Below, piece after piece: positions 1,463-46,625 of a stretch of 64,000 nucleotides of DNA; position 1 is the stretch's first letter, and every line of letters starts with the position of its first letter. This stretch comes from Anaerolineales bacterium (GTDB taxonomy: Bacteria > Chloroflexota > Anaerolineae > Anaerolineales > UBA11858), in assembly GCA_034520505.1 (NCBI GenBank), contig JAXHNK010000003.1, positions 22,323 to 86,322 on the forward strand, given 5' to 3'. Under the pieces are notes generated by a model. That model worked only from the letters and a program-made list of their open reading frames with translations. It was not told the origin of the DNA and did not search any database. A program made the position numbers and the translations under genes.

Positions 1463-1539
1463 TTTTTCCTCCTCTTGATGAGCTGGTTTACTTTCATTCT
1501 ATCACCATCCCGGGTAATATCGTCCGGTGCTGAATATGC

Positions 1540-2745
1540 TCAGAATACTTGAGCCGGAACGATCGATCCTGCTTCTATGCTCACCACTCCTTCGGGAATC
1601 CTGACCACTGCATCGCTGTGAGCCATCATCTGCAGCCGGCTTTCATAATCAAGTGGGGTGAAGCTCATCCCCTCCATTCCCCCTTTATTTGACCCCAATT
1701 GCCCATGGATAAACTGGGTCCAAGCCCGCTGACCGCGGATGGTCTCGTTCAGAATTACCGGATAAATGGCCAAACCGGGATTGGCCCAGCCTGCCAGCTT
1801 CATAATTCCCGGCAAGGCCAGCTGGAGGAAAGCCATATGATTGGACGGCGGTCCTCCCGGAAGACAAAAAACTGGTTTTCTGCCCACCAATCCAAAACCC
1901 ACCGCTTTACCCGGCCCCATCCGCACCCGGTGATATGTTTTATCCCAACCCAGGTTTTCCAGCTCATCAACCACCAGATCTCGCTCCCCTTTCCAGGCTC
2001 CACCGCTGGTCAGCACAGCGTCATTTTCTTCCAGCGCTTTAACCAGATTGTCCCGCAATCTCTCTTCATCATCAGGAACTACTCTGGTGGAGACCTGAAA
2101 CCCAAATTTCCGGCACCAGGCTGCCAGAGTAACCAGATTGCTGGCAAATAATTTGCCTGCTTCCAAACGCTTTCCCGGAGCAATTACTTCATCTCCCGTG
2201 GCGATTAATCCAATCTTGGGGATGTGAATGACCGGAACCTCGGCAATGCCCGCAGAGGCCAAATAACCCACCAGAGTCGGCTGAAGGATTTCACCCCTGT
2301 TAAGCAGCTGCTGACCGGGTTTGACATCGGCTCCTTTAGGGAGCACGTTTCTCCCCGGTTTGGCCGTGTTCAGGGCGATGATTTGTTTTCCTTCTCGGCG
2401 AGTGAACTCCTCCGCCAGCACAGCCTGGGCACCTTCTGGAAGGGGAGCACCGCTGAGAATCCTCACCGCCTGTCCTTTCTGTACAACCCCCTCCCAATCC
2501 CCACCAGCCGAGATGCTGCCCACCAGATCAAGCCGGACTTCATGCCGGGGCGAAGCCCGGCTGACATCCTCGGAATGGACCGCAAACCCGTCCTTTAAGG
2601 AAACATCCAGCGACGGCGACCAGATGGCTGCGGTCAGTTCCTCTGCCGCTGCCCGGCCAACAGCTTCCATCACCGGTACATATTCTGCATCCAGCGCGGC
2701 GATCGAATCCAGGGTCAATCGGTAAGCCTCAGAAAAACCAATCAT
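1540..2745 (-). CDS. moeA: molybdopterin molybdotransferase MoeA
   Basis: 401 aa. MoeA-type N-domain (SLDVSLKDGFAV, RILSGAPLPEGA) and MoCF-biosynthesis domain (IGLIATGDE ... LTSGG). Overlaps mobB by 4 nt. Confidence 0.9.
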   Translation of the reverse strand: MIGFSEAYRLTLDSIAALDAEYVPVMEAVGRAAAEELTAAIWSPSLDVSLKDGFAVHSEDVSRASPRHEVRLDLVGSISAGGDWEGVVQKGQAVRILSGAPLPEGAQAVLAEEFTRREGKQIIALNTAKPGRNVLPKGADVKPGQQLLNRGEILQPTLVGYLASAGIAEVPVIHIPKIGLIATGDEVIAPGKRLEAGKLFASNLVTLAAWCRKFGFQVSTRVVPDDEERLRDNLVKALEENDAVLTSGGAWKGERDLVVDELENLGWDKTYHRVRMGPGKAVGFGLVGRKPVFCLPGGPPSNHMAFLQLALPGIMKLAGWANPGLAIYPVILNETIRGQRAWTQFIHGQLGSNKGGMEGMSFTPLDYESRLQMMAHSDAVVRIPEGVVSIEAGSIVPAQVF

Positions 2746-3251
2746 TTATTCTCCAGATAAGTACTCTCTACCAGATCTGCCAATGAGTCAACATCATTGA
2801 GGTCAAAGACAGGAACATCGACCTCCAGGTCCACATCCGCTGCAATCGCCAGACGCTGGTCTGGATCGCTGATCAGCGTCAGGCCGATTTCTTCCCGAAC
2901 CACCTCCAGGGATGGCTGATGAGCGCTCTTATAACCCTCAACCAGGATCAAATCCACCGCGGAAAACTCCTTCAGGATCTGATCAAAGGACATCTCTTCT
3001 GCCAATAAACGATAAGAAGCAATTTTATCCGGCGCAGCGATGATCACATGTTCGCTTCCCGCCCGGGCATGCCGCCAGCTGTCCTTCCCCGGTTTATCGA
3101 CATCAAAACCAGCGTGGGAATGATGCTTTAAGGTCCCGATCCTGTAGCCCCGGGCTTTCAGCTCCCCGATCATCTTCTCCATCAGGGTAGTTTTCCCTGC
3201 CTTTGATTTTCCAATGATAGTCACTACGGGTATCGCCATAACGCCTCCCAT
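2742..3251 (-). CDS. mobB: molybdopterin-guanine dinucleotide biosynthesis adaptor MobB
   Basis: 169 aa. Walker A GKSKAGKTT and MobB block GTLKHHSHAGFDVDKPGKDSWRH. Confidence 0.9.
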   Translation of the reverse strand: MGGVMAIPVVTIIGKSKAGKTTLMEKMIGELKARGYRIGTLKHHSHAGFDVDKPGKDSWRHARAGSEHVIIAAPDKIASYRLLAEEMSFDQILKEFSAVDLILVEGYKSAHQPSLEVVREEIGLTLISDPDQRLAIAADVDLEVDVPVFDLNDVDSLADLVESTYLENK

Positions 3252-3267
3252 TCTATTTAATCAGCCC

Positions 3268-3999
3268 TCAGGCTAAAATGACAAAGAACACAATCACAAC
3301 CAGCGCAGCGGGAAACACAACCCAGTCCCAGGTGCTGACCAACAGAGGCAGGGGACGGGTTTTTTCCGGTGAAAAAGCCCGCGATTCAGCGGCCAGCGCG
3401 ATTTCTTCTGCCCGGAGAAGCGCGTTGGAAATCGTGGTCAGCGCGAAGAGCCTGATCCCCCGCCACCACTTTCTTCTCAGACCGCCGCGCATCTTCAGGC
3501 AGCGCCAGGTCTGAGTACATGATCTTTTCAAGCAGGGCATGATATTCAAAGCCACTCCCATGGAAAAACCCAGCCCCTTTAATCCCAGGCGTTCCAAAAT
3601 TCCCGCCAGAGCAGCAATTTCGACATTGGCAGTGAGCCCTTCCAGGGCACCGATCACCACCAGAAAGCGGGAGGTGATCTGCAAAGCAGCCTGGACCCCG
3701 GTTGAGGAAAATCCCACTCCCAGGAAAGATAGATCCACGTCGCCTAAAAAGAAAACAGGGGGAACGGATAACAGGGCGAGGAGGATCAGGCGTCGTCCTG
3801 CCAACAGCCGGCGCCAGATTCCAGGATAAATCAAGAAGAGCACCAGCAGGCAAAATCCGGCTGCGTAAAGAATTAATTTTCCAGGAGTAAGCATCACCAT
3901 ACCCAGGGCCCAGGAAAAGATTCCGAGATGACCCACCGTCCCCAGGGAAAAACCTTTTCTATTCATGCTCATCCCCTCCTCCTCTAACTTCTGCTGCAT
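3268..3999 (-). CDS. ECF transporter transmembrane (T) component, CbiQ/EcfT-like
   Basis: 243 aa, multi-pass, with an Arg-rich cytoplasmic coupling region (LLRAEEIALAAESRAF). Last gene of an A-S-lipoprotein-T set. Confidence 0.7.
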   Translation of the reverse strand: MQQKLEEEGMSMNRKGFSLGTVGHLGIFSWALGMVMLTPGKLILYAAGFCLLVLFLIYPGIWRRLLAGRRLILLALLSVPPVFFLGDVDLSFLGVGFSSTGVQAALQITSRFLVVIGALEGLTANVEIAALAGILERLGLKGLGFSMGVALNIMPCLKRSCTQTWRCLKMRGGLRRKWWRGIRLFALTTISNALLRAEEIALAAESRAFSPEKTRPLPLLVSTWDWVVFPAALVVIVFFVILA

Positions 4000-4002
4000 C
4001 TT

Positions 4003-4446
4003 TTATCTCACCTGCAGTTCAGCAAGCAATCGAACGTTGAGTTTACCTTCTTCACCGGGAAGCACCATCCGGAAAGTGCCTTGATCACCATCCAGGGGAC
4101 CTTCTTCCCGGGCATAGGCTACCAGGACATCTTCTTGTTGGAAAATTTCCGGCGTGTAGGTCACGCTGTAACCATCCGCAGCTACAGCGGTCACCGTGGA
4201 GATTTCTCCTGATGCATAACCGCTTTCCTGAAGCAGTGCTATCAGAGGGACCCCGACATAAGTCTCACCTTCAAACTCTGACCGGGCTGCGCCCAGGGTC
4301 TGCATCTCCTCAACAGTATAAATGACTTCCCTCCCATCTCCAGTGATCAGCAGCTGATTGACTTCCTCTACCTGGGGGATACATCCGGAACAACCAATCA
4401 ACAACAGACCGAACAACAAAACATAAAAAGCTTTTCCTCTGATCAT
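4003..4446 (-). CDS. lipoprotein with short SUOX/YedY-like 'oxidoreductase molybdopterin-binding' type domain (tentative)
   Basis: 147 aa with lipobox LLIGC. The mature part shows the pattern GVPLIALLQESG...AADGYSV...DVLVAYA...GPLD...TFRMVLPGE, which I recall from small Mo-pterin-binding-fold proteins. Overlaps the S-component gene by 4 nt. Needs HMM confirmation. Confidence 0.55.
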   Translation of the reverse strand: MIRGKAFYVLLFGLLLIGCSGCIPQVEEVNQLLITGDGREVIYTVEEMQTLGAARSEFEGETYVGVPLIALLQESGYASGEISTVTAVAADGYSVTYTPEIFQQEDVLVAYAREEGPLDGDQGTFRMVLPGEEGKLNVRLLAELQVR

Positions 4447-5084
4447 CCGTCTTTTCTCCTCGAACTTGACTTTTCCTCAAACTCCACACCGCTCCTCCCC
4501 AGCCGTTGATAGAGCTGCCCTCCCAGCGTCCAACCTGTCCAACCGGCAAGAGCTCCGATCAGGAAATAAATAATCACCAACCCAGCCACAATCCACAACA
4601 CGGTATTTGTACCCAGTCCCAGCAGCCGGCTGCCGCTGCGCAGCAAATCCAGCCAGACATCCACAATCCCGCGCCCGAAAAGCAGCGGATTGGTGATAAA
4701 GGGCTGAACCAGCACCCACAGCACACCTGCTCCTCCGGCGAGGACCATGATACCCCGGTTGGGCCGGTCTTTAAGGGAGAGCACTGCCTCCGCCACTGCT
4801 GCTTCTGTGATAATGCCGACCATGGGTCCGATGACCACACCTCCCAGGGTGAATAATTTTAGCAGCGCAGCGATGACCCCGATGAAGAGCACTGAGCCTT
4901 TCTGCGGCACAAAGACCCGGCCGATCAAGGCAATGGTCAGCCCGATGGCAGCCAGGATCACCCCGCTGATCGGGATCCTGAGGGACTTCAAAACAGTACC
5001 CAGTGTCATTTCCGAAATCCCCCACAGGGTGCCAAAAACTGCCAGGGTCACCAGGTCTCTCGTGGAATAGTTCATAATAAACAC
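4443..5084 (-). CDS. ECF transporter substrate-capture (S) component, specificity unknown
   Basis: 213 aa, about 6 TM helices, Gly/Ala/Ile-rich, located between the ECF ATPase and T genes. No specific S family recognised. Confidence 0.6.
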   Translation of the reverse strand: MFIMNYSTRDLVTLAVFGTLWGISEMTLGTVLKSLRIPISGVILAAIGLTIALIGRVFVPQKGSVLFIGVIAALLKLFTLGGVVIGPMVGIITEAAVAEAVLSLKDRPNRGIMVLAGGAGVLWVLVQPFITNPLLFGRGIVDVWLDLLRSGSRLLGLGTNTVLWIVAGLVIIYFLIGALAGWTGWTLGGQLYQRLGRSGVEFEEKSSSRRKDG

Positions 5085-5099
5085 TCCTTCTTCAATTAC

Positions 5100-6536
5100 C
5101 TAGCTGACAGATCCCCTCATGGTAATCCTCCCCTCTTCCATCAGCAGCACTCGATCGGTATAATGATGGACCAGTTTGTAATCGTGAGATATCAGTAAAA
5201 TTGCTGTTCCCTGCTCGTTTAGCTGCCGGAGATAATTCATCAGCTGCTCCAGGTGACCCCAATCCTGACCCAATGTGGGTTCATCGAGGATCACCAGCCG
5301 GGGTTGAATCGCCACACAGGCAGCCAGCGCGGTGCGCAGCTGCTGTCCCAGGGAAAGGGTAATCGGTCGGCGGTCGACAAACAGCCGAAGATCAGTTTCC
5401 CTGAGCACTTTTTGGTGTCTTTCAGGGTCAAAACGACCGTAATTCCGGGAGGCGAATGCCACTTCTTCATCTACCGTATCAGCAAAAAGCTGTTCCCGGG
5501 GATCCTGAAATAAGAGGGCAACATCCAGACCGGGTCGGGGTTGTTTTTTGCCCTGGAAGTAAATTTTTCCTGATCGGGGTTTAACCAATCCGGCAGCGGT
5601 CAAAGCCAAAGTCGATTTCCCTGAACCATTATCACCCACCAGGGAGACAAACTCACCGGGATAGAGGGTAAGGTCAATATCCTTGATGATAATGTTTCTT
5701 CCATAACCAGCGCTGATTTTTTCCAGAGAGAGCAGGGGAAGACCAGGACGCTGCGCTGCCCTCCCATTGCCTTCGATCAGGCTGGCCCAGGAATTAAGCG
5801 GTTGATTTACGGGACGGCGCAGGCCGTATTGATCCCGGATGGCCGCATTTTCCAGCACCTCATCGGGGCTTCCCCAGGCTGCAAACCGGCCCTGATCCAT
5901 CACATACACCTGATCAAGATGAGGGAAAGCGCCTTGCAGTCGGTGTTCGACCATCAGGATAGTGACCCCATATTCCTCCTTCATCCTGGTCAGGGCATCG
6001 ATCACCTGATTCGTGCTGGAGACATCCAGAGAAGCAGTTGGCTCATCTAAGATCAGGATCCGGGGCTGCATGGCCAGCACGGCGGCAACTGCCACCAGCT
6101 GCTTCTGCCCGCCTGAAAGTTGATCCGGGCGTTTTTCTTGGAGGTGGGCTATACCAACCGTCTTCAGGGTCTCACTTACCAGGCGCTGGACTTCTGCTTC
6201 ATCTTTTCCCAGATTACGGAGGCCAAAAGCCACCTCTTCTCTAACGGTGAGATGGAACAGCTGGGAACTGGGATTTTGAAAAACCAGGCCCACCTTGCAA
6301 GCCAATTCATCCAGCGAGGCATCCTGGGTGTTCATCCCGTCCACCAGGATGCTGCCTTCCAGCTGACAGGATATGGCATGAGGGATCAAACCACTGAGCG
6401 CCTGGGCCAATGTGCTTTTTCCGCAGCCTGATGGTCCGGTAATCAAAACCCATTCTCCAGGGTTCACCTGCAGCGAAAGGTCTTTTATCACGCGCTCGTT
6501 TCCATAACTGATGGATAGATTCTCAACCCTGATCAT
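5100..6536 (-). CDS. ECF transporter ATPase, fused tandem ABC domains (EcfA-EcfA')
   Basis: 478 aa with two complete ABC cassettes: GPSGCGKST/LSGGQKQ/ILDEPT and GDNGSGKST/LSLGQQLR/ILDEPT. Confidence 0.9.
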   Translation of the reverse strand: MIRVENLSISYGNERVIKDLSLQVNPGEWVLITGPSGCGKSTLAQALSGLIPHAISCQLEGSILVDGMNTQDASLDELACKVGLVFQNPSSQLFHLTVREEVAFGLRNLGKDEAEVQRLVSETLKTVGIAHLQEKRPDQLSGGQKQLVAVAAVLAMQPRILILDEPTASLDVSSTNQVIDALTRMKEEYGVTILMVEHRLQGAFPHLDQVYVMDQGRFAAWGSPDEVLENAAIRDQYGLRRPVNQPLNSWASLIEGNGRAAQRPGLPLLSLEKISAGYGRNIIIKDIDLTLYPGEFVSLVGDNGSGKSTLALTAAGLVKPRSGKIYFQGKKQPRPGLDVALLFQDPREQLFADTVDEEVAFASRNYGRFDPERHQKVLRETDLRLFVDRRPITLSLGQQLRTALAACVAIQPRLVILDEPTLGQDWGHLEQLMNYLRQLNEQGTAILLISHDYKLVHHYTDRVLLMEEGRITMRGSVS

Positions 6537-6574
6537 ACTTTTGGTTGGACTCCTTTTCTTTCCTTCCTGATTTC

Positions 6575-6613
6575 AATGACAAAACGCCCACCAGGATACA
6601 TAACTGGCGAGCG
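6575..6613 (-). terminator. intrinsic terminator forming the expression platform of the upstream structured leader
   Basis: The minus strand reads CGCUCGCCAG-UUAUGUAUC-CUGGUGGGCG followed by UUUUGUCAUU. That is a 10-bp stem (2 G-U pairs), a 9-nt loop and a U-tract, 38 nt upstream of the ECF ATPase start. Confidence 0.6.
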
Positions 6614-6645
6614 TTTTACGCTGCTCGTTGTCTTTGTATCCTTTC

Positions 6646-6799
6646 CAATTCAATCCGCTCACCAGCAGATATCGGGAGGTCGGGACATTTCTGTTCCCTA
6701 CCCTCACTTTCCCCGTTATCCACCAGGGAAGGGTCGGCCCCTCAACCATAGCAGCAATCACCACGTTCTACCTTAGGTTGAAGGTCTCGGATTCGATTG
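6646..6799 (-). ncRNA. candidate Moco (molybdenum/tungsten cofactor) riboswitch aptamer
   Basis: A long closing helix pairs 6788-6799 with 6646-6657 (CAAUCGAAUCCG / CGGAUUGAAUUG). Next come CCGAG, then hairpin ACCUU-CAACCU-AAGGU followed by AGA, then AACGGGGAAAGUGAGGG, and later GACCUCCCGA. These resemble my memory of conserved Moco-motif blocks (CCGAG, hairpin, GGAUAG, GGAAAGG, CCUCC). The context is a mobB/moeA operon. Not verified with a covariance model. Confidence 0.5.
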
Positions 6800-7021
6800 T
6801 CAGCTCAGATCTTTAAGATCTCGTTTCACATCCTTCACTTCTTCCAGCACATCCAGCTCTGTTTTCAGCTCATCCGTAAGGCTGCTGAAGTAGGCTTTCA
6901 CCTCGCGGATCAATCTCCCACATTTCCGGGCCGTGATCGCAATCCGCTCCGGTCCGAGGACAAACACCGCCAGCAGCAGGATCAACATCAGTTCCGGACT
7001 GCCGATATCAAATATTTCCAT
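6800..7021 (-). CDS. tatA: twin-arginine translocase subunit TatA/E
   Basis: Start moved to the internal ATG preceded by GGAGG. MEIFDIGSPELMLILLLAVFVLGPERI gives a TM helix and Gly-Pro hinge, followed by an amphipathic helix and an acidic tail. Confidence 0.8.
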   Translation of the reverse strand: MEIFDIGSPELMLILLLAVFVLGPERIAITARKCGRLIREVKAYFSSLTDELKTELDVLEEVKDVKRDLKDLS

Positions 7022-7022
7022 C

Positions 7023-7340
7023 TTACTTCCTCCTCGCTGTCCTGGCCAGAATGATGCTGAAAACATATAAACCCAGTAAGGGCAGCATGACCAGCCCCAT
7101 GTTAACGGGATCCACCGTGGGGGTAATGGTCGCGGCCAGCACGGAAATCCTCACCAGGGCATAACGCCACCCAGCCAGCAGCTGCCCCGCAGTCACCACC
7201 CCCATTTTAGCCAACCCAAAAGCGATTAAAGGCATCTCAAAACTAAGGCCGATCCACAGCATCAGCTTGGTGACAAACTCAAAATAATTTTGCGGCCGCA
7301 CCTGGGTTGTAATCCCCGGAAAATTAGTTCTTAGATTCAA
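7023..7340 (-). pseudogene. tatC: tatC 3' fragment (C-terminal ~100 aa only)
   Basis: PGITTQVRPQNYFEFVTKLMLWIGLSFEMPLIAFGLAKMGVV...TPTVDPVNM matches the TatC TM4-TM6 region (E. coli GVQVSTDIASYLSFV...FGVSFEVPV..., recalled). The listed start is a TTG. The frame hits a stop 21 nt upstream at 7362-7364, exactly where GC content collapses. About 140 N-terminal residues are missing. Confidence 0.75.
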
Positions 7341-7640
7341 CTCATTAGTACAACAACAAGATCATTAAAATGATAAGCTGGAGTAGAACAGAGTGCCTTT
7401 CAAACGACCAGGTTTAAGGAGCACTCGTGAACACCTACAAACAGCTCGCTCTGTGTGCCTTTGGCAACCTAATTTCAACGATACCAGATATCTACCCTTT
7501 TGGAAAGTGATCAAAATTAAACGGAGATAGCCAAAATCATCAGGGGCAAAAATCTATTATTTGCTTAGAGCTAATATGGAACCGCAGCCAACGTGGATAT
7601 CATCCCAAACAACCTCATTGGAAAGCCATCAAGGGACACA

Positions 7641-7665
7641 GTTGGGATCGCAGAAGGATCCCAAC
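7641..7665 (-). terminator. perfect 9-bp hairpin downstream of the molybdoenzyme operon (possible terminator, no U-tract)
   Basis: GTTGGGATC-gcagaag-GATCCCAAC lies 175 nt past the stop of the 1071-aa gene. Neither strand has a T-run after it. Confidence 0.25.
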
Positions 7666-7838
7666 TCAAACGCGGGGCTGGATCGAGGAAAAGATTCGAC
7701 CAGACTGGAGCCCGGAATAAATCTCGATTGGGTTGAAGAAATCCATAAAAACCAATGGCCGAGAAAATGCTTGATTATCCTGGCACCTGAAATCGTGTTA
7801 TGCAAACTAAGTGATGGTACCCTTGAAACGAAGTTAGA

Positions 7839-10800
7839 TTAAACTTTAGTGAGATTCACTCTGGTATCATAGAACGAAACACTACCGCCGACAGGATCCA
7901 CCATACAAGTATTATTTCGTAATGATGAATCCGTCCACATTGCAGCATTTGCGTGCACGCCTTTGGCTCTTCTGGGATCACCTTCAATAGTTTCACCATC
8001 AATATCAAAATCATCTGCACCGGTTGCCCAATGACCAAACCCGAGCACAAAGGATATTACTCCAGGTCGCATAGTTTCGGTCGGAATTACTTTACCAATG
8101 ATGTCTTTGGTTTTTCCATTTTTAAAATCCCATCTACCTTCGGTATTTGTAGCGCTTGTAATTCTAACCAGATCATCTTTTTCTAATTTTAATCGTCGAG
8201 CATCTTTAGGATTAATCATTATTCCATTTTCGGGCATAATCGGCTGCAGCCAGTATGCCCCAATTGTTCGGGATTTTGTCTGCGTAATTGTACGGTTCGT
8301 TATCATACTAAATTCATATCCCTCCGAAAGTTCCTCGACTGTTTCCTGGGCGTAATTCATTATCGGAAGATACTTTGCATAACCATAATAGGGTTTTCCT
8401 GTTGCAGCATATTTTTTTGTCGCAGTTTTTTCTTGATATAGATTTAATAAAGCCCCGAAACGGTGAGCCAGTTTATCACCTTCAAAGGATTTATTGTGGT
8501 CCTCATACCTGCCTCCGCGGTTCAAAATAAAAACTACCTTTCGCCAGTTGTCTTCTCCGACAACTTGTTTCCATCTTTGTTCGTCAAAAACAGATTTATC
8601 AAGATGCCTTCTTGCCTGGGAAAAGACCTCAAGCTCGCGGTCATCTGCCTCAGGTACTGCTGATTCTGTGTGAGCGAGATTCGCAATTGCTCTTAGATAT
8701 AGATCATCCGGTTTCGTAATATCCAACCCTTCACCGAGTGCGTTCTTCCCGAATGCTTTCAATCCAAGCTTTTTATTCAAGGCCATAAACATGGATTCCA
8801 GGCTGCACGGAATCTCTTCACCATCAACTTTCACTTTTTCAGGAATGGGTGAAATTACAGGCTGCCGCACATTTTCAACTTTTGCCGCCATATTGGGATG
8901 AGAACCCTGAAATTCCCAGCGTTCTAAATATGACAGATCAGGGAAGATGTAATCGGCATACATTGAAGTGGAACCAATGATGATGTCACTTGTAAAGAAA
9001 AGAGGAAGTTTATCAACGTCGGCAAGCACATCAATATTTGTATGTCCCGCGGGTAACGCATAGGTTGGAGCTCCCATATAAAAGAATAAGGCTTTTACGG
9101 GATATGGATATGCCTCCCCGATACTTGGAATTATTTCTTCATAAATATCTGATGACAGCGGATACCAATTTCTTTTTGCCGGATAACCTTCGAAGATCGT
9201 AGTCTTTTCGTAATCAACACCATGACGAATTGAGCTGATCCCAAAACCAGAAATCTTTTCATCTTGTTTCTTTAAGTCAAAGACACCGCCTTTCGAACCG
9301 TCGTATTTATACGTGGTTGCTTTGGACATTCCACCCGCCCAATCATAATTGCCAATCAACATATTGAGCGACATCCAACTTAGAACATTATAAAAACCAT
9401 TCGTGTGCTGTGCAGGTCCGCGGTGAATATCGACTGCGGCTTGTTTGCCATAGCTTGTTAATTCTTTTGCAACTTCAGTTACATCTTTCTCTTTAACACC
9501 GGCAATTTCACACCATTCGGTAATCGAATGTTCTTCCGAAGATTCTTTAAGAATTTGCAGCCCGGATTTTACTTTTACTTTGTTACCTTCCTTATCGCTA
9601 AGTTCTGTATCAACTAAAAGGTCACCGTAAACCGGGTTCTTTTCATCATTAGGATCAACCCAGGTTGGTTTACCGTTTACCATAACAACCAGGAATTTCT
9701 CCTCATACTCCGAACCGTTAAATATTCTTTTTTCAGGAGATTTCAAACCAAAATCGGCAGCACGTATCAATTTGCCCGGTTCTCCATCTTTTATTTCCAC
9801 AAGATAAGGCGCTGTTGTCCAGCTCGTTTCATTTGCAGCTTGAGCGGCTGCTTTATTTGCATTGCGGAGAAACTTTTCATCGTAACGTTTATTGCTAATG
9901 ATCCATTGAATCATTGCGAGAGCAAGCGCTGCATCCGTACCGGGTTTTAAGGGAAGCCATTGATCTGCTTTGCTGGCAAGTTTTGAGAATCTTGGATCAG
10001 CAACTGCAATTTTTGTGTATCCGCTCGCAAGATTTTTTGTCAATCTAACTGTTCGGTTTGTAGGACCGTAATTAGCTTCAAATAAGTTAGCTCCAACAAA
10101 TAAAACATATTTGGCGTGTTCGAGACTCGCCTGCCAATAAAATTTGCTGCCTCCCTGAAATTTACCCCCTTGATATTGCTCGCTAATTGCCTTGCAGGTA
10201 AAGTAGAGTGACCCCTGACATACTGTAGTGTGCCCGTGAAGATTCGTTGTTCCGAAAGCAGATTGAAATCTTTTAAAGAAATCTTTCCTTCCGTTTTTCA
10301 ATCTTCCGTACGCCATTACAAATTGATTATTCTTCGGTCCTAAATCAGGATGTTCAGGATCAATTAGCTTATCGAGATCCCCTTTATGTTTTTCCTTGAA
10401 TCTTTCTACCAGTCGTTTTTTCTCGCTTCCGTCTTTTTCCTCCCAAATTTCGTCAATGTCTTTAGCCATTTCCCGGGAAACTTTTGAATCGCGCAAAGCC
10501 ATAATATCTTTAAGGCCTTCAACAACCCTGTTCTCTTCACCCGGAACATCGGCAAATAGTTTTCCACCTTCAACTATTTCTGATATGGCTTGCTCAAAGG
10601 GAATTGCAACCCACGTATTTTCACCACGCTTACCGGCACGTTTCAATACTTTCCTTATTCGATAAGGATCATAAGCGATTTGGACACCGGCTTGTCCTTT
10701 TGGACAGAGTCCGCCATCAATCCTCGCGGCTTCATCAAGATCAGTCTTCATTGGAAGGTGCGGCACCATTGTCCAGGGGTTGTAAGGGTTCCCATCAATC

Positions 10801-11054
10801 TTGGCAAGAATACCATCTTGATTTTTTGCTTTCATTCCACAGCCGGTATTACAATTAAGACATACAGAATAAATAAAATTTTCCGGTTTGTTCAAAGTAT
10901 ATTCAGCATCGGGTCGTTTGCTATTGATTATTCCCTGCTGCGTTTGAGCCGATATTTTTCCCTTACCGAAAACAGTTGCCAGAACACCGTTTCCAAGTAA
11001 AGCACCTTTAGCCAGAAATTCTCTGCGGGATGAATCCTTTTTGTTGTTTTTCAT
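7839..11054 (-). CDS. Tat-exported bis-MGD molybdopterin oxidoreductase catalytic subunit, Psr/Phs/Ttr family (TtrA-like by size and gene order)
   Basis: 1071 aa. Twin-arginine signal SRREFLAKGAL, N-terminal FeS motif CLNCNTGCG...CPKG, and a probable Mo-ligand Cys in HGHTTVCQGS. Overlaps the NrfD gene by 4 nt. Substrate cannot be read from the sequence. Confidence 0.85.
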   Translation of the reverse strand: MKNNKKDSSRREFLAKGALLGNGVLATVFGKGKISAQTQQGIINSKRPDAEYTLNKPENFIYSVCLNCNTGCGMKAKNQDGILAKIDGNPYNPWTMVPHLPMKTDLDEAARIDGGLCPKGQAGVQIAYDPYRIRKVLKRAGKRGENTWVAIPFEQAISEIVEGGKLFADVPGEENRVVEGLKDIMALRDSKVSREMAKDIDEIWEEKDGSEKKRLVERFKEKHKGDLDKLIDPEHPDLGPKNNQFVMAYGRLKNGRKDFFKRFQSAFGTTNLHGHTTVCQGSLYFTCKAISEQYQGGKFQGGSKFYWQASLEHAKYVLFVGANLFEANYGPTNRTVRLTKNLASGYTKIAVADPRFSKLASKADQWLPLKPGTDAALALAMIQWIISNKRYDEKFLRNANKAAAQAANETSWTTAPYLVEIKDGEPGKLIRAADFGLKSPEKRIFNGSEYEEKFLVVMVNGKPTWVDPNDEKNPVYGDLLVDTELSDKEGNKVKVKSGLQILKESSEEHSITEWCEIAGVKEKDVTEVAKELTSYGKQAAVDIHRGPAQHTNGFYNVLSWMSLNMLIGNYDWAGGMSKATTYKYDGSKGGVFDLKKQDEKISGFGISSIRHGVDYEKTTIFEGYPAKRNWYPLSSDIYEEIIPSIGEAYPYPVKALFFYMGAPTYALPAGHTNIDVLADVDKLPLFFTSDIIIGSTSMYADYIFPDLSYLERWEFQGSHPNMAAKVENVRQPVISPIPEKVKVDGEEIPCSLESMFMALNKKLGLKAFGKNALGEGLDITKPDDLYLRAIANLAHTESAVPEADDRELEVFSQARRHLDKSVFDEQRWKQVVGEDNWRKVVFILNRGGRYEDHNKSFEGDKLAHRFGALLNLYQEKTATKKYAATGKPYYGYAKYLPIMNYAQETVEELSEGYEFSMITNRTITQTKSRTIGAYWLQPIMPENGIMINPKDARRLKLEKDDLVRITSATNTEGRWDFKNGKTKDIIGKVIPTETMRPGVISFVLGFGHWATGADDFDIDGETIEGDPRRAKGVHANAAMWTDSSLRNNTCMVDPVGGSVSFYDTRVNLTKV

Positions 11055-12214
11055 AATGACGTCCCTAATTTCTTTTGTGTGAAATAAGATAGAAGTTTTA
11101 TTCCAAAATAAACCAACGCAACTCCAAAAGCTCCGATAAACAGCGCAACTAAATACTCGTTTAACGTTGCTGAATAATCAAATCGTAATCTCTCATGGTA
11201 AAAAGCATCTTGTAAACCTTTTAATTCAGCGACCGCCTGACCAGGAACAAGTACGTTTAATCTTGCAGAAACAAATGTAACCGCCACTATAAAGGCACCT
11301 GTTCCCACAGTTTGATAAGTTTTACCTTTCCACAATACATAAAGAGCTATTAATCCACCGCCCAGATGAACAAACCAGAAGACCCACCAGAATGGTCCGA
11401 AAAGAATTAATTCAACTGCCTCTCTTATATGTGAATTTGGCGACCAAAAGACTAAACTGTATTCGGCAAATTCTGCCAGGAAGTAAAAAAGAATGCCGCC
11501 AATAATAACATAACGAAGCATTTTAAATGGCTGCTGTGATAAGTCAAACTCTTTATAATGAAGAAAAGTATAGACCAGTAATAAAACTGCGCCGCCAGAA
11601 GTAATAGCTGATACTAAAAACAATATCGGCAGCAGTGGTGAACTCCAAAACGGTTTAGCATCAACAACACCAAAGAAAGCGCCACTCTGGCTCGGGAAAG
11701 CTATGGAAAACATAAATGCCAAACCCATTAATGGAAGCATCCAGCGAGATTTGTCATGTAAATCGGTCTGCTTTTCTTTCTTCAGTGAAAGCCAAAATAA
11801 TCCAGCTGCACAACCGATAAACAAAGAATACATCCAGGCGTTAAACGCCATCATCGAACCAAAGTTTGGTGCATACAAAATGCGGGCAAATCTGAAAGGC
11901 TGCCCCAAATCTAACCAGATGGAGAACAACCCGGTTATCACTGCTGCGACTGAAACAACAAGTATGACCCGGAAATTCTCCCTGAATCCAGTAAGATCAA
12001 AAACATAACCAAGCGTTCCAATTGCAAACACACCGCCCGAAATTCCAACAAAATGGAAGTAAAGTGCAACCCACAATCCCCAGGGGACGTAACTTCCGTA
12101 GCCAGCTAACTTTTCTCCTGTTGCAAATTTCAAAATCAAACCAGCTAATCCGATGATAAAAACAATCAACCAAATACGTGATACATATTTATAAGTTTTT
12201 GTCAGCATAATCAC
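11051..12214 (-). CDS. NrfD/PsrC-family integral membrane quinol-interacting subunit
   Basis: 387 aa, about 9-10 TM helices, located between the FeS and catalytic subunits. Confidence 0.85.
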   Translation of the reverse strand: MIMLTKTYKYVSRIWLIVFIIGLAGLILKFATGEKLAGYGSYVPWGLWVALYFHFVGISGGVFAIGTLGYVFDLTGFRENFRVILVVSVAAVITGLFSIWLDLGQPFRFARILYAPNFGSMMAFNAWMYSLFIGCAAGLFWLSLKKEKQTDLHDKSRWMLPLMGLAFMFSIAFPSQSGAFFGVVDAKPFWSSPLLPILFLVSAITSGGAVLLLVYTFLHYKEFDLSQQPFKMLRYVIIGGILFYFLAEFAEYSLVFWSPNSHIREAVELILFGPFWWVFWFVHLGGGLIALYVLWKGKTYQTVGTGAFIVAVTFVSARLNVLVPGQAVAELKGLQDAFYHERLRFDYSATLNEYLVALFIGAFGVALVYFGIKLLSYFTQKKLGTSL

Positions 12215-12215
12215 C

Positions 12216-13124
12216 TCACAACAAATAAATTACTGTTGGCTTTGTGCCTTTTTCTTCGAGCAGCTTAACCTGATTCGGTTGACGTGCCATTTCCGTAACG
12301 AGTGAGTCGGGATCATTTGCATCGCCAAAATAATTTGCTCTTCCAATGCAAGTTGTAACACACATAGGAAGCTCACCTTCATTCAAACGATGCAAGCAGA
12401 AATGACATTTACGCGCATTACCCATTGGTGAATTATGTCCTTCACGATTCCAGCTTTTCCCATATTCATTGTTAGGAAGAGTTTCATAGGGTTGTAATTC
12501 AGGAGTATCTTCAGTGTAATATTCGCCGAAGTCGCTCGTTCTGGCGCCGTAAGGGCAGGCCGTTAAACAATAGCGACAGCCGATACATTTATCGTAATCA
12601 ATTTGGGTAATTCCGTCCGGTCTTTTCCATGTTGCATTAACAGGACAAACCGAAACACAAGAAGGATTTTCGCACTGCATACAAGGACGCGGAAAATACC
12701 TGAGCTGAGTATTCGGATATTCTCCCATTTGCTCCTCAACCACAGGACGGTAGACGACTCCGGGGGGAAGTTTATTTTCGGCAATACAGGCAACCGTGCA
12801 AGCGTGGCATCCAACACATTTTCTTGTATCAATGACCATCTTCCATTTTCTTTCTTCAACCGGCTTTGCCAGCGCTTTTTTTAATTCTGCTTGCATTCTG
12901 ATGAGAACATCAGATTCTTCGCTTACCTGGACCGATTTAAATTCAGGAATATCCCGGATTGTATCCGCGCCCGTTGGTGTTTCAGGGGGGGGACTTAATC
13001 TTGCTGCTGTAACCGCTGCAACAGATACAGCAACACCTCCCCCAACAACTCCAGCGGTCTTCAAAAAATCTTTTCTGGTAATTTCCTCGCTGATTGATTT
13101 TTTTTGTTTTGTTTCGTCTGCCAT
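12216..13124 (-). CDS. 4x[4Fe-4S] ferredoxin-type electron-transfer subunit with its own Tat-like signal
   Basis: 302 aa. The N-terminus has [15 protein letters not shown] (an RK variant of the RR motif). Four Cys clusters are present: [41 protein letters not shown]...CVTTC. Confidence 0.9.
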
Positions 13125-13278
13125 TTTCTTATCTCCGTTAATGATAGATGCAACTTATAAACAACTTTGAAAGGATTAGTTAAGCGGGAAAACATCTCCC
13201 TGGCATCAGATCAAGATCACAGCAATACCGCCAAATTCAGCATATCGATTTGAACACCGCCATAACCTGTTTATTTCC

Positions 13279-14175
13279 CTATTCCCCTTCGATCCGCAGG
13301 GACTCCATGACCTCGTCCAGGATCAGCAAAGAAGGCTGGAAAGAATCCGCCGCTTCCCCGTCAAGCTGGATCTCCTTCTCCGCGGCATAATTCATGAAAT
13401 TATCATAGAAATCCTCGTCCATGGTAACGTCATCAGGTTCGGGGAGAGAAGGATGGGTGACGGGCAGGACGGCGCTGACATAGTATCTGCCGTCTGCGGT
13501 CAGGCCCTGGAAAGTGTAAAACAAATGCGGCCAGCCGATGGGGGACGCGGCCTGCCCGTACTGGGAGATGAACCGGACCCCGCTCCCGTTTTGAAACTGG
13601 AGATACTGCTCCTGGGCGCGGATGAACTGGGCGGCGTTGAAGAAATGGGCCACACCCACCTCGGGATCCGCCGGCCGGGAGTCCAGCACCCCCTGTAAAT
13701 GGTCGAGCCGCTGACCGACATCAGGGTTCACCGCCTCAAAAGCATCCACGGAATAAACATGGATCACCGGCTCGTGAAAGGTATCTCCCAGCGGATATCC
13801 CACAAAGGTGAAGCGGATATGATCCGGGGTGCTCCAGGGATTTTCCGGATCACCCTGCCCGGGGACCTGCTCGGCGTTGACCGAGAGGGCCGCAGAGGGC
13901 TCAAAGGAGAAGCTGATCCCCCGGTAGACGATGTCCGGCTCGGGGGGAGAAGCGGTGACCGTGGGATGGACGGTGAATGTGGGGGAAGGCGGCGGGAGTT
14001 CGGTGGGCTGCTCCTCACCCGCCGAACGGGCTGCCAGGGTGGCGGCGACGGAAGTGGCGATTTGATCGCCTGGCTGGGTGGTCGGCTGCCCGAGGTCCAG
14101 GGAAACAGCACAGGCCAGCGATAGGGCGGCCAGCAGGCTGACGGCGAACAGGATGGAACTTTTTTTGGTGTTCAT
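13279..14175 (-). CDS. exported hypothetical protein (signal peptide, Pro-rich linker)
   Basis: 298 aa. N-terminal MNTKKSSILFAVSLLAALSLACA, then a Pro/Thr-rich stretch. High GC like the host. No family recognised. Confidence 0.6.
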   Translation of the reverse strand: MNTKKSSILFAVSLLAALSLACAVSLDLGQPTTQPGDQIATSVAATLAARSAGEEQPTELPPPSPTFTVHPTVTASPPEPDIVYRGISFSFEPSAALSVNAEQVPGQGDPENPWSTPDHIRFTFVGYPLGDTFHEPVIHVYSVDAFEAVNPDVGQRLDHLQGVLDSRPADPEVGVAHFFNAAQFIRAQEQYLQFQNGSGVRFISQYGQAASPIGWPHLFYTFQGLTADGRYYVSAVLPVTHPSLPEPDDVTMDEDFYDNFMNYAAEKEIQLDGEAADSFQPSLLILDEVMESLRIEGE

Positions 14176-16761: not shown

Positions 16762-19152
16762 ATGCGAGAAAAAACGGTCTCCATTGAAATCCCCCTGATC
16801 ATGCCCGGACTGGAGCAGGAATGCGGCCGCTGTCTGGACCAGGTTCAGCATACTCTTCAGGAGCATAAAGGGGTGCTGTCCACTCACCTGGATCGAGAGC
16901 GTGAGCAGCCGATCCTGCACATTCACTACCTGCCCGATCTAATTTCCCTGGAAACTGTCCGCCGGATCACCCGGGAAACCGGCCTGGACCTGGTCAAACG
17001 CTACCGTCATGAAAGCATACCTCTCCAGGAGCTGGATAACGCCGATCAGGCGCCGGGGATCCGCCGGGCGCTGGAAAACCTGCCGGGGATGCTCCACGCC
17101 CGGGTAAATTACGCAGCCGGATTAGCCTTTGTCGCCTATGAAAAAAAGAAATTAAACCCGGAGAAGATCGCTTCTGCCCTGAGAAAGATGGGGGTGAGGC
17201 CGGTCAACTGGCCGGAAGCAGCCCCAGCTGAGAGCGCTGATAAACGAGCAGCCGCCTTTTTCCCCCGCTGGATCGAGGAGCGTTTTGAACTGGTCCTGGT
17301 GGGTGTAACTGGAATCCTCATCCTTCTGGGCTGGGGCGGAGATCAGTTCTGGGCTTTCCCCGATCCATTCCCCCAGATCCTGCTGATGCTGGCTTATCTG
17401 AGCGGGGGGATCAGCCTATTCCTGCGGGCAGTGCCCGGTTTATTCCAGGGGAACTTCGACACCGACGTTCTGATGCTGGCCGCCGCCGGAGGCGCAGCGG
17501 TTCTCGACAAATGGGCCGAGGGCGCTTTTCTGCTCTTTCTTTTCAACCTGGGCCATGCCGGGGAACATTATGCGTTGAACAAAGCCCGGACCGCGGTTAA
17601 CGCATTGGGAGAGCTGCTGCCCCAGACTGCCCGGGTACGGCGGGAAGGTGAAATCCTGGAGGTACCGGTGAAAACCGTAAACCCCGGTGAACGAGTGCTG
17701 GTCCGTCCCGGCGAACGGATTCCAGTGGACGGCAGGGTCCTCTCCGGGGAGAGCACGGTCGATCAAAGTCCCATCACCGGGGAAAGCGTCCCGGTGAGGA
17801 AAACGCCGGGGGGCGAAATTTTCGCCGGGTCTGTCAACCAGGATCAAAGCCTGGAAATCGAGGTCACCCGGGCCGCTGAGGATAACACGTTAGCCCGGGT
17901 GATGGATCTGGTGGCTGAAGCCCAGAGCCAGCAAAGCCCCACCCAGCGATTCACCGACCGGTTTACCTCCTGGTTTGTCCCCGCGGTGCTGATCCTGACC
18001 CTGCTGGTGATCACCGTCCCCCCCCTGATCGGCTGGTTGTCGTTCCAGGACAGTTTTTACCGGGCGATGCTGCTGCTGGTCGCGGCCTCTCCCTGTGCCC
18101 TTGCCCTGGGAACCCCGGCAGCAGTTCTGACCGGAATCGCCCAGGCCGCCCGCAACGGGGTGTTGATCAAAGGCGGGGTCCACCTGGAAAACCTGGGCAG
18201 GATCCAGGTCCTGGCCCTGGACAAAACCGGCACCCTGACCGAGGGCAAATTTCAGATTACCGATCTCATTCCCATCAACGGCACAACGCCGGAAGAGCTC
18301 CTACGGACAGCCGCGGCCGTAGAAACCGAATCCAGCCATCCCCTGGCCGCGGCGGTGGTTGACGAAGCCCGGGCCCGAAGCCTCACCCTACCGGCGGTGG
18401 GACTGCTGGAAAACTTTTCCGGCCGGGGGGTGGGCAGCGAAATAGGCGGCCAGCAGGTGTTGATCGGCACCCTCGATTTGCACCGGGAAAAAAGCGAGCA
18501 CAACCCCGGAAAGGATGTTATCAGGCTGGTGAAGCGCTTGGAAGAAGAAGGAAAAACCACCATGACCGTCCGCCGGGGAGAAAACTATCTGGGTGTGATC
18601 GCCCTGGCGGACATTTCCCGGGCGGGGGTCAAGGAAACGTTAACTTCCCTGCTGAACCTGGGGATCAAAAAAATTGTCATGCTGACTGGGGATAACCGCC
18701 GGGCTGCCGAGAAGACCGGGAAAGAACTGGCGGTCACTGATATCCGTTCCAACCTGCTCCCCGCCGACAAACTGACCGCGGTCAAGGAGCTGGAGCGGGA
18801 ATACGGGGAAATCGGCATGATCGGAGACGGGATCAACGATGCACCGGCCTTGGCCGCGGCCACCGTGGGAATTGCCATGGGCGGAGCCGGGACAGCGGCT
18901 GCTTTAGAAACCGCTGATATCGCCCTGATGGCTGATGACCTGAGCAAACTGCCCTTTGCCGTGGGGCTGAGCAGGGCCAGCCGGCGAGTAATCCAGCAAA
19001 ATTTAATCATCTCCCTGGGGGTGATCGCACTGCTGATCCTGAGTTCGGTCCTGGGCTGGTTTCCGCTGGGATGGGCCGTCGTTTTTCACGAGGGAAGCAG
19101 CATCGCCGTGGTGCTCAACGCGCTGCGTCTGCTGGGGTATAAGGAAAGATAA
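16762..19152 (+). CDS. heavy-metal translocating P1B-type ATPase (SPC / HEGSS signature, P1B-4-like)
   Basis: 796 aa with DKTGTLT, TGDN and GDGINDAP. The TM metal motif is ASPCAL and a late TM carries HEGSS. The N-terminus has one CxxC (ECGRC) and one degenerate HMA-like repeat. Confidence 0.9.
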   Translation: MREKTVSIEIPLIMPGLEQECGRCLDQVQHTLQEHKGVLSTHLDREREQPILHIHYLPDLISLETVRRITRETGLDLVKRYRHESIPLQELDNADQAPGIRRALENLPGMLHARVNYAAGLAFVAYEKKKLNPEKIASALRKMGVRPVNWPEAAPAESADKRAAAFFPRWIEERFELVLVGVTGILILLGWGGDQFWAFPDPFPQILLMLAYLSGGISLFLRAVPGLFQGNFDTDVLMLAAAGGAAVLDKWAEGAFLLFLFNLGHAGEHYALNKARTAVNALGELLPQTARVRREGEILEVPVKTVNPGERVLVRPGERIPVDGRVLSGESTVDQSPITGESVPVRKTPGGEIFAGSVNQDQSLEIEVTRAAEDNTLARVMDLVAEAQSQQSPTQRFTDRFTSWFVPAVLILTLLVITVPPLIGWLSFQDSFYRAMLLLVAASPCALALGTPAAVLTGIAQAARNGVLIKGGVHLENLGRIQVLALDKTGTLTEGKFQITDLIPINGTTPEELLRTAAAVETESSHPLAAAVVDEARARSLTLPAVGLLENFSGRGVGSEIGGQQVLIGTLDLHREKSEHNPGKDVIRLVKRLEEEGKTTMTVRRGENYLGVIALADISRAGVKETLTSLLNLGIKKIVMLTGDNRRAAEKTGKELAVTDIRSNLLPADKLTAVKELEREYGEIGMIGDGINDAPALAAATVGIAMGGAGTAAALETADIALMADDLSKLPFAVGLSRASRRVIQQNLIISLGVIALLILSSVLGWFPLGWAVVFHEGSSIAVVLNALRLLGYKER

Positions 19153-19408
19153 CCCGGATCCTGGGATTTGCAATCGGTGACCCCTTTGATCCCTCAGCGG
19201 CGGTGCTATTCTGAGAGGCATTTCTGCCTTGGCTGCGTTCAAGCCTGGGATTACAACCCGCAGATATATTTATTCTCAAACTGAACGGAGTGAGATATCC
19301 TTCTGAAGAAATTTTGATCCTTACCCTGCTGCAGTGGATATCTTTCCCTTCCCAGGTTATGATTAAATGATCTTCCCCAACCTGTACTGATCTTTTCAGG
19401 AGTTCTCG

Positions 19409-20146: not shown

Positions 20147-20228
20147 GTAATCAGTGATCAGGTTATTTCTTTCCGATCGCACCGGAAACTGTAATATACA
20201 AAAACTCATAGAGAGGAACTCATCCGCT

Positions 20229-20600
20229 TCAGGACAGAACCAGGTCCTGGATGCGGTGGATGGCCCGGTTGGTTTCCCGGCGGTAGGATGTTTCCGGCGG
20301 CACCAGCACACCGAGGATAATATAATCCCGGCCCAGATCCACCGGCCGGCAAACCCAGTGCACCCGGTCATTCGCCCGGATCGTGACCTCGTCCACCGGG
20401 GCCATTTCCAGCTCACCCCTGATTTGCGTGCTGACCTGACCGAGCAAAGCAACCATCGCTGTGTCCACTTCCCCGTTGGGCAGTTGGGGAGCATTGGCAA
20501 TGGGCAGGCCCTCATCTGTTGCCAGCACCGAGCGTTCAAAACCCCCGCTCTGATTCATCTCTGCCAACACCTGCTGAAACTGATTGAGGAAATTTTTCAC
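20229..20600 (-). CDS. Roadblock/LC7 (MglB-like) domain protein
   Basis: Start set to the GTG preceded by AGGAGA, 13 nt after the GTPase stop. The Roadblock pattern is ...GGFERSVLATDEGLPIA...VALLGQV.... Confidence 0.7.
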   Translation of the reverse strand: MKNFLNQFQQVLAEMNQSGGFERSVLATDEGLPIANAPQLPNGEVDTAMVALLGQVSTQIRGELEMAPVDEVTIRANDRVHWVCRPVDLGRDYIILGVLVPPETSYRRETNRAIHRIQDLVLS

Positions 20601-46587: not shown

Positions 46588-46625
46588 GGCGCTGATCCGG
46601 TAAAGACTCCCCCCGAAACAAAAAG

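Follow-up and report, generated by a model that had tools for sequence, protein, structure and literature searches.

A three-gene operon resembling the tetrathionate reductase genes ttrBCA occupies an abrupt segment of low guanine-plus-cytosine (GC) content, at positions 7330-13276, in a 64,000-nucleotide (nt) stretch of an Anaerolineales bacterium (GenBank assembly GCA_034520505.1, contig JAXHNK010000003.1, positions 22,323 to 86,322; referred to here, at its full length, as the window and numbered from its first letter). Phylogeny, colinearity and composition identify this operon as one acquired horizontally by an Anaerolineales lineage from a Melioribacteraceae-like member of the Ignavibacteriota. 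The full explanation, which we regard as likely, is that a ttrBCA-like operon was transferred and lies beside a platform of molybdenum (Mo) and twin-arginine translocation (Tat) genes, that the acquisition is an older one, and that a later deletion produced the form seen in the window. Beyond what a preliminary description made from the letters of the window had noted, the low-GC operon is nested in an 11.7-kb variable block, and the truncation of the adjoining tatC gene is a polymorphism within the sample. The segment and its borders are made up as follows.

7023..7328 (open reading frame, ORF, 7023-7340), minus strand: 3′ fragment of tatC encoding the C-terminal ~100 residues; matches TatC profile positions 131-208 of 208
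7325..7329, no strand: left breakpoint, TAGTT, the 5-nt overlap of an intact-tatC path and a low-GC path in the assembly graph
7330..7838, no strand: low-GC (0.43) non-coding stretch 3′ of the catalytic gene, not homologous to the donor loci
7839..11054, minus strand: ttrA-like catalytic subunit with Mo-bis(pyranopterin guanine dinucleotide) (Mo-bisPGD), 1071 residues (aa); Pfam Molybdop_Fe4S4, Molybdopterin and Molydop_binding
11051..12214, minus strand: ttrC-like NrfD-type membrane subunit, quinol-interacting, 387 aa; Pfam NrfD, 107 bits
12216..13124, minus strand: ttrB-like four-cluster iron-sulfur (FeS) subunit, 302 aa; Fer4_11, 70 bits, and related domains
13125..13276, no strand: low-GC (0.38) upstream non-coding region, the presumed promoter region, which holds the right boundary of the foreign DNA
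13279..14175, minus strand: gene for a 298-aa secreted hypothetical protein (host, right flank), without a Pfam or NCBIfam match

The segment stands out by every compositional measure that was applied. In 500-nt windows, mean GC is 0.416 within 7330-13276 (sd 0.019, maximum 0.464, n = 22) as against 0.536 outside it (sd 0.044, n = 229), with a single outside window (1/229) falling under the island mean, and GC steps from 0.52-0.56 to 0.38-0.46 near 7330 and back up near 13280. The tetranucleotide L1 distance to the rest of the window reaches its maximum, 0.44, for 5.9-kb segments overlapping the island (median 0.156), and GC at third codon positions (GC3) is 0.34-0.35 in the three operon genes versus 0.56-0.74 in the flanking genes. 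All of these agree with the drop at about 7320-7340 and the recovery by 13280 that had been reported at the outset. The left boundary could be refined to 7325-7329; on the right side, homology to the donor loci stops at 13151 and homology to island-free relatives resumes at 13277.

On the minus strand, the genes run in the order FeS subunit, NrfD-type anchor, catalytic subunit, which is that of ttrB-ttrC-ttrA, and they abut or overlap one another (12216/12214; 11054/11051), so that ORF and Pfam analysis bears out the three-gene content, the order and the 1071-aa catalytic subunit given in the preliminary description. All three Pfam domains of the catalytic subunit exceed their gathering cut-offs, and its translation contains the FS0 motif C65-x2-C68-x3-C72...C117. 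The Tat-type motifs SRREFL and TRKDFL that had been picked out are present in the translations, as S-R-R-E-F-L-A in the catalytic subunit and, at residues 16-22 of the FeS subunit, as the RK variant T-R-K-D-F-L-K, which is also kept in L059, a related locus described below; export is predicted for both proteins. A natural Tat signal with one arginine (Lys-Arg) is known from Salmonella TtrB. Cys279 of the catalytic subunit (HTTVC) aligns with the cysteine of HSSVC in ArrA (6CZ7), a type of cysteine that we take, from published structures, to be a Mo ligand. From these domains and motifs, the complex is assigned as a three-subunit complex iron-sulfur molybdoenzyme of the dimethyl sulfoxide (DMSO) reductase superfamily, of the Psr/Phs/Ttr type.

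Family assignment within that type was examined with NCBIfam models. For the catalytic subunit, TtrA scored best at 464.6 bits (cut-off 1750), followed by PhsA at 200 and ArrA at 96 (cut-off 1600); the FeS subunit scored 164.4 with TtrB (cut-off 416), 175 with DsrO (under its cut-off) and 143 with ArrB (cut-off 450); and the anchor scored 28 bits with TtrC against a cut-off of 314. The ArrA and ArrB scores place the enzyme outside the respiratory arsenate reductase (Arr) equivalog. The earlier designation TtrBCA holds for gene order and at the level of the clade, and does not hold at the level of the NCBIfam equivalogs, where the scores lie far under the cut-offs; the enzyme is in the Ttr clade, but the scores do not establish it as a member of the Salmonella-type tetrathionate reductase family. 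The operon is flanked by the tatC fragment and tatA on one side and by the 298-aa hypothetical protein, LysE and major facilitator superfamily (MFS) genes on the other, with no kinase or response regulator within 5 kb of it.

The relatives of the operon point to the Ignavibacteriota as its source. The best protein match of the catalytic subunit is from a Melioribacteraceae metagenome-assembled genome (90% identity), and it is 85% identical to Melioribacter roseus AFN74315, which by accession order we take to be MROS_1076, while the FeS subunit clusters at 90% identity with proteins from Ignavibacterium album, Rosettibacter primus and Melioribacter roseus (AFN74313). At the nucleotide level, the operon is colinear at 84% identity with a Melioribacteraceae locus (L001) and a second low-GC locus (L002) over 13151-7838, a range that begins 27 nt before the FeS start codon and ends at the catalytic gene's stop codon, and every close operon homologue sits on a contig of 0.34-0.40 GC. 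In a neighbor-joining (NJ) tree of the catalytic subunit (21 sequences, 1016 ungapped columns), the window and L059 were paired in 200/200 replicates, within a Melioribacteraceae-type clade (200/200) that itself lies within the Ignavibacteriota (200/200). The host signal comes from an aminotransferase 40 kb away and outside the block, whose named matches are Anaerolineales at 68-78% identity, and from the TatC fragment and the transporter ATPase of the platform, whose relatives are Anaerolineae or Anaerolineales. Since the flank matches are Anaerolineales and the operon groups in the Ignavibacteriota, a cross-phylum transfer from Ignavibacteriota to Chloroflexota is deduced, and the low-GC foreign donor postulated in the preliminary description can be named as Melioribacteraceae-like.

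A scan of Joint Genome Institute (JGI) metagenomes for the catalytic subunit's C-terminal third returned donor-type low-GC contigs only (72-86% identity) and none in the host context, and among GTDB species representatives the best matches to the ATPase of the platform were only 50% identical and came from Anaerolineae, with synteny not conserved and no close reference genome. The operon's neighbours in the donor loci include ArsP, ArsR-type, thioredoxin, rhodanese and TauE genes, none of which was carried along to the window. Directly upstream of the FeS gene, L001 and L002 (both at 6790-7881) also have a conserved 363-aa gene without a Pfam match; this gene was not transferred, being absent from the window and from L059.

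The two junctions were followed in Logan unitigs and contigs (31-mer graph), where the segment is present in X1 and X2, two runs of one salt-pan sample, and occurs in diverged forms in microbial-mat and other metagenomes. At the left junction, a 71-nt unitig of X2 covers 7288-7358 at depth 31.1 with 0 mismatches and a 515-nt contig of X1 covers 7246-7760; the spanning sequences in the two runs have depths of 31 and 9 and 0-4 mismatches. Two alternative paths were found in X2 at the same place, a 1201-nt contig (depth 15.6) that matches 7288-7329 and then diverges as in-frame tatC, and a 14,238-nt low-GC contig (depth 13.6) that matches from 7325. These paths overlap by 5 nt (TAGTT) only, which makes a 31-mer misjoin impossible and means that reads must span the left junction. 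No branching is seen at the right junction in either X1 or X2, and depth in X2 is even, at 31-41 in the left flank, 39-41 in the island and 39 in the right flank. In a different run, contig L059 carries the operon at 94-95% nt identity in another high-GC context, where it adjoins a degraded 3′ relic of the 298-aa gene, the host gene that marks its right flank in the window.

That the contig is chimeric, with an Ignavibacteria fragment mis-joined into an Anaerolineales contig, was the second explanation offered in the preliminary description, and it accords with the location of the abrupt GC step inside a gene, with the splitting of the X2 graph at 7325-7329 into a high-GC and a low-GC path, and with the occurrence of Ignavibacteria-like low-GC contigs in the same sample. 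It is highly improbable and was rejected, given that two runs independently provide 31-mer unitigs and contigs across the left junction, that the alternative paths have 5 nt in common and no repeat able to cause a misjoin, that the right junction is unbranched and depth is even over the junctions, and that L059 repeats the operon in a high-GC context together with the relic of the 298-aa gene; moreover, at 84% the operon's identity to known Ignavibacteria falls short of near-identity, and its GC is shifted. A native origin, in which the operon belongs to the Anaerolineales or passed from Chloroflexi to Ignavibacteria and its low GC is gene-specific, would draw on the existence of family homologues in Chloroflexi (GWC2_73_18, 64-67% identical to the catalytic subunit) and on Chloroflexota ttrA transcripts reported in soils (PMC11462812). 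It is hardly credible, however, when the window protein is nested three levels inside the Ignavibacteriota with 200/200 at each, when its GC3 fits Ignavibacteria and is 20-40 points under that of all flanking host genes, and when the operon is missing from relatives with flanks of 91% identity.

Acquisition of the operon by transfer does not by itself describe the left border, where tatC is truncated. The window fragment is without the first ~155 residues and aligns to residues 56-155 of the C-terminal part of TatC in L049, a JGI contig from a more distant member of the Anaerolineae; homology to the relatives begins at nt 7325-7328, and no other TatC-like sequence, including the N-terminal part, was found in the window. 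Read on the minus strand, the end of the 1201-nt X2 contig continues into the window in frame (...VMIPAAVPFL/TNFPGITTQVRP) and fits the TatC consensus of the relatives, and from this in-frame continuation past 7329 it follows that a coexisting form has tatC whole across the breakpoint. A simple insertion into tatC is excluded because the 5′ part of the gene is not found beyond the insert. A low-depth contig of run X3 also breaks at 7325. The two alternative paths are nearly equal in depth (15.6 and 13.6), and the deletion form is the majority (31 vs ~15). The truncation of tatC is a strain-level polymorphism within the sample. In the most economical model, drawn from graph topology and depths, a minority strain would carry intact tatC, a further interval, at least 14 kb more of low-GC DNA and then the sequence from 7325 onward, and the majority strain, that of the window, would have lost the interval and the 5′ part of tatC by a microhomology-mediated deletion over 5 bp, so that the form in the window probably derives from a longer one by deletion. 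The tatC fragment pointed out in the preliminary description is confirmed, and it is as the product of a later deletion, rather than as an insertion scar, that it is most simply explained.

Two competing accounts were weighed against a later deletion in an operon that was already established. In one, the 6-kb operon was inserted recently and directly into tatC, with the truncation as its scar, in keeping with the ending of tatC homology exactly where low GC starts and with an operon GC3 (0.34-0.35) still near that of the donors (0.28-0.32). Such an event would be expected to leave both halves of the gene, yet what comes next beyond the insert is the 298-aa gene, not the 5′ part of tatC; a form with intact tatC coexists, a low-GC path joins at this same position with similar depth, and a synonymous divergence (dS) of ~0.2 to L059 together with 84% donor identity speaks against a recent event, all of which makes this account unlikely. 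The other account, that the locus is decaying and the operon is a non-functional passenger after the loss of tatC, is possible, if doubtful: the only tatC of the window is without ~155 N-terminal residues, the block is dispensable in close relatives, and the neighbourhood in L059 is degraded, with relics of the 298-aa gene and of a transposase. On the other hand, none of the three ORFs is shortened and every cofactor motif and signal peptide is in place, the deletion form predominates in the sample (depth 31 vs ~15), and the genome may have a second tatC elsewhere. The ratio of nonsynonymous to synonymous divergence (dN/dS) of 0.08-0.13 also speaks for function, but it is averaged since the split from L059 and is uninformative on the period after the deletion.

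Split or short TatC proteins were common among the sequences retrieved. Besides the window fragment, all 36 of the 36 TatC homologues were 180 aa or less, the longer ones (~155-180 aa) representing the C-terminal two-thirds. In L049 (6090-6883), an N-terminal part (102 aa) and a C-terminal part (155 aa) lie in different frames, 17 nt apart, and can be fused by a 1-nt shift in a CCTCC run; L048, which like L049 is from a more distant member of the Anaerolineae, has a similar break at 7740-8504. Possible explanations for this split are an assembly error that recurs, programmed frameshifting, and a tatC gene that is truly in two parts.

The age of the acquisition was assessed from divergence. Between the window and L059, dS is 0.15-0.24 and dN/dS 0.08-0.13 in all three genes, from which it is concluded that the operon has long been kept under purifying selection in recipient lineages. 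The non-coding flanks of the two loci are 72-80% identical, as neutral divergence of that order would give, with the upstream region 13125-13276 at 80%. Against the nearest donor, identity is 84% at the nucleotide level and dS in the FeS gene is ~1.4. By parsimony with L050 as outgroup, AT>GC changes outnumber GC>AT changes by 174 to 55 on the window branch and by 77 to 61 on the donor branch, and the operon has a GC of 0.40-0.44 in the window vs 0.38-0.42 in the donors, which points to partial amelioration. Judged from these divergences, the acquisition is not recent and is instead moderately old. The recent, unameliorated transfer of the preliminary description is not supported in view of the donor identity, the dS values to donor and to L059, and the AT>GC bias.

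By analogy with enzymes of the Psr, Ttr and Arr types, a route for electrons can be proposed. The NrfD-type subunit would oxidise menaquinol, as family knowledge suggests, and electrons would travel along the B subunit's four [4Fe-4S] clusters to the FS0 cluster of the A subunit and on to Mo-bisPGD, with Cys279 as the predicted Mo ligand. The Mo centre would then reduce an extracytoplasmic oxyanion, the complex being membrane-anchored and facing outward from the cytoplasm. The A and B subunits would be exported folded via the Tat pathway, and the adjoining platform would supply both export and cofactor. The enzyme is, on this analogy, a predicted quinol-dependent tetrathionate or arsenate reductase. 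These are the two candidate substrates that published work backs for this clade, tetrathionate being that of the Salmonella prototype. In Melioribacter roseus, ttrA (MROS_1076) transcripts were up in arsenate-grown cells, and only psrA/phsA induction was clearly statistically distinguishable (PMC5492636). Bacterial TtrA homologues of Anaeromyxobacter and Geobacter have been implicated in As(V) respiration, and the substrate is described as unpredictable from sequence (PMC11462812).

Several characterised systems can be set beside the operon. The Ttr complex of M. roseus (MROS_1074-1076; PMC5492636) is an ortholog with the same B-C-A order in the same Ignavibacteriota clade, but its host is one of the Ignavibacteriota rather than an Anaerolineales member, its arrTSR-like and ars neighbours are not found here, and its function has been drawn solely from transcript induction by arsenate, which for ttrA is statistically unclear. 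Salmonella enterica TtrBCA (NF011569, NF011568, NF011567) has in common with the window operon the ttrB-ttrC-ttrA order, an NrfD-type anchor, Tat signals on A and B and a catalytic subunit of ~1020-1070 aa, and its TtrA is the best NCBIfam model for the window subunit; it differs in that the window proteins score far under the equivalog cut-offs and no ttrRS adjoins them. The TtrA homologues linked to As(V) in Anaeromyxobacter sp. PSR-1, Geobacter sp. OR-1 and Pyrobaculum aerophilum (PAE1265) belong, by their descriptions, to the same broad branch (PMC11462812, PMC5492636), and the ars-type neighbours found near the Melioribacteraceae donor operon were not carried to the window. The closest solved structures are Thermus thermophilus PsrABC (PDB 2VPW-2VPZ) and Shewanella ArrAB (6CZ7), with E values of 3e-32 and 5e-18, which are alike in having a Mo-bisPGD subunit with a Cys ligand and FS0 and a four-cluster B subunit, Psr also having an NrfD-type anchor. 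Similarity to them is only local, however, and the window catalytic subunit is ~300 residues longer and in a different clade.

The preliminary description had also remarked that the insert adjoins host tat and Moco (molybdenum cofactor) maturation genes, and the matches to tatA, moeA, mobB and a Moco riboswitch support this. The features of the platform, and the block of which it is part, are listed here.

1539..13276, no strand: variable block of 11.7 kb (Mo/Tat platform and low-GC operon), absent in relatives that are ~91% identical in both flanks
1540..2745, minus strand: moeA, molybdopterin molybdenumtransferase; Pfam MoeA_N, 121 bits, and MoCF_biosynth, 75 bits
2742..3251, minus strand: mobB, accessory protein of molybdopterin guanine dinucleotide (MGD) synthesis; Pfam MobB, 141 bits
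3268..6536, minus strand: energy-coupling factor (ECF)-type transporter operon; NCBIfam ECF_ATPase, 372 bits, Pfam CbiQ and Oxidored_molyb
3268-3999, minus strand: CbiQ T-component of the ECF operon
4003-4446, minus strand: 147-aa Oxidored_molyb-like protein of the ECF operon
4443-5084, minus strand: 213-aa membrane protein of the ECF operon, without a Pfam match
5100-6536, minus strand: double ATPase of the ECF operon
6623..6804, minus strand: Moco riboswitch in the 5′ leader of the ECF operon; Rfam RF01055, 47 bits (gathering 36), full-length 1-135
6800..7021, minus strand: tatA/B-family gene; Pfam TatA_B_E, 29 bits

Lying 3′ of the operon on the same strand, the platform thus runs from the tatC fragment through tatA, the riboswitch with the ECF transporter, and mobB to moeA. 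In L049, the same order is kept from tatC to CbiQ at 45-68% amino acid identity (45-53% in the ECF part), and in L048 the part from tatC to tatA is in common with the window, whose tatA is 57-63% identical to the tatA found 3′ of tatC in these two contigs. A Moco-controlled ECF transporter with a small component resembling a molybdopterin oxidoreductase is unusual, and the same gene set occurs in L049. On the 5′ side of tatC, both L048 and L049 have a DmsB/DmsC-type enzyme, a Nitrate_red_del chaperone and a Fer4 or radical-SAM protein. No remnants of DmsA, DmsB, DmsC or the chaperone were found in the window, the sole match being the expected one between FeS paralogs. As a DmsABC-type cassette holds that position in L048 and L049, the catalytic cassette is taken to have been exchanged.

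Platform and operon together behave as one variable unit. In Logan contigs from five microbialite or sediment runs (L053, L054 and L056-L058), position 13277 is joined to 1538 via a 70-nt spacer, the outer flanks are 90-92% identical to the window and the whole block 1539-13276 is absent; the 298-aa gene is intact in L053-L058. Contig L055, which is 91% identical in its right flank and does not extend to the left side, has a third allele after the 298-aa gene (9245-10860), consisting of AT-rich non-coding DNA and then a GAF-domain ORF of more than 472 aa. Three alleles at one intergenic site past the 298-aa gene mark it as a hotspot of variable DNA. By these comparisons the platform and its cassette (1539-13276) are accessory DNA, and the block combines DNA typical of the lineage (1539-7325) with foreign DNA (7330-13276). 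Atypical composition, presence/absence polymorphism and three alleles at one site liken the locus to genomic islands and flexible-genome hotspots. It differs from a classical integrative island in that, as the preliminary description had already stated, no integrase, transposase, tRNA or flanking direct repeat was found: searches gave no integrase or transposase ORFs in the window, no tRNA near the low-GC segment, and no flanking direct or inverted repeats of 10 nt or longer at either the 6-kb or the 11.7-kb boundaries (longest 9 nt). In L059, the region 3′ of the operon (9055-10480) contains two small ORFs, one DUF433-like (66 aa) and one ferredoxin-like (63 aa), and the C-terminal remains of an rve-type transposase, degraded and interrupted by in-frame stops (rve_3, E 0.007, under threshold); this relic is the sole hint of mobility genes near the operon.

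A broader reading, which we put forward tentatively, is that Anaerolineales carry a conserved, portable docking platform for molybdoenzymes, at whose head cassettes are swapped and which itself comes and goes at a hotspot. Spelled out, and still no better than possible, the platform would comprise tatA/tatC, the riboswitch-controlled ECF transporter and mobB/moeA, and the DmsABC-type cassette would have been replaced by one of the Ignavibacteria Ttr type. The same reading might, with like reserve, include one natural population with both a long and a deleted form, one of them without the platform's own tatC.

A number of points weigh against the explanation preferred here, of an older acquisition from Ignavibacteriota, placed beside the Mo/Tat platform and followed by a deletion. 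Support for the left junction is limited to one sample (X1 and X2), which is probably the source of the contig, and the unitig depths there are not additive (31.1 + 15.6 vs 34-41). The origin of the 14,238-nt and 1201-nt contigs from one strain is deduced from depths and graph topology. The short branch leading to L001 only is also AT>GC biased (42 vs 15), so that the parsimony polarisation is partly artefactual. With regard to the predicted function, the NCBIfam Ttr equivalog cut-offs lie far above the scores of all three proteins, and the operon has neither a ttrRS-like regulator nor a dedicated chaperone beside it; as the only tatC of the window is truncated, the enzyme may be non-exportable in this strain unless the genome has another tatC outside the window. 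The block may have been gained here or may have been lost in the relatives.

With these reservations, the locus is a well-bounded case of a complete respiratory module crossing from Ignavibacteriota to Chloroflexota in a hypersaline or microbial-mat setting, in which the recipient has a foreign catalytic operon beside its own export and cofactor genes. By analogy with the systems described above, it suggests that some Anaerolineales may be able to respire tetrathionate or arsenate with an acquired enzyme, which is of relevance to interpreting sulfur and arsenic cycling from metagenomes. It also holds a caution, in that an abrupt GC step and a truncated gene, which resembled a misassembly, instead reflect a real strain-level deletion polymorphism. 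Transfers among enzymes of the DMSO reductase family are well known and cross-phylum borrowing is ordinary, and for this reason the general significance is modest.

Some minor features of the window were also recorded. The non-coding stretch 7330-7838 gave no match to the fetched loci by blastn, tblastx or pattern search, no Rfam match at E<=1 and no match in PLSDB plasmids, and its folding z was -0.7. The first ~120 nt of the low-GC side at the breakpoint (7329-7446) are ~85% identical to a contig of 136 nt (depth 196) in run X13, where a host relative is present at 18.8x without the block, and pieces of X3 matching 7329-7446 total ~44x; this element may be a repeat, a miniature inverted-repeat transposable element (MITE) or an element conserved in some abundant organism. 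Farther along, a second stretch of lower GC (0.45-0.49) at 45000-48000 contains tRNA-Met and tRNA-Gly (46515-46697) and several ORFs without a Pfam match, and no integrase was found in it. Finally, 1.1 kb at 19139-20244, with a dip in GC (0.46-0.51) and a 245-aa ORF without a Pfam match, is replaced by 134 nt in L053-L055, a second, small indel between the window and these 91%-identical relatives.

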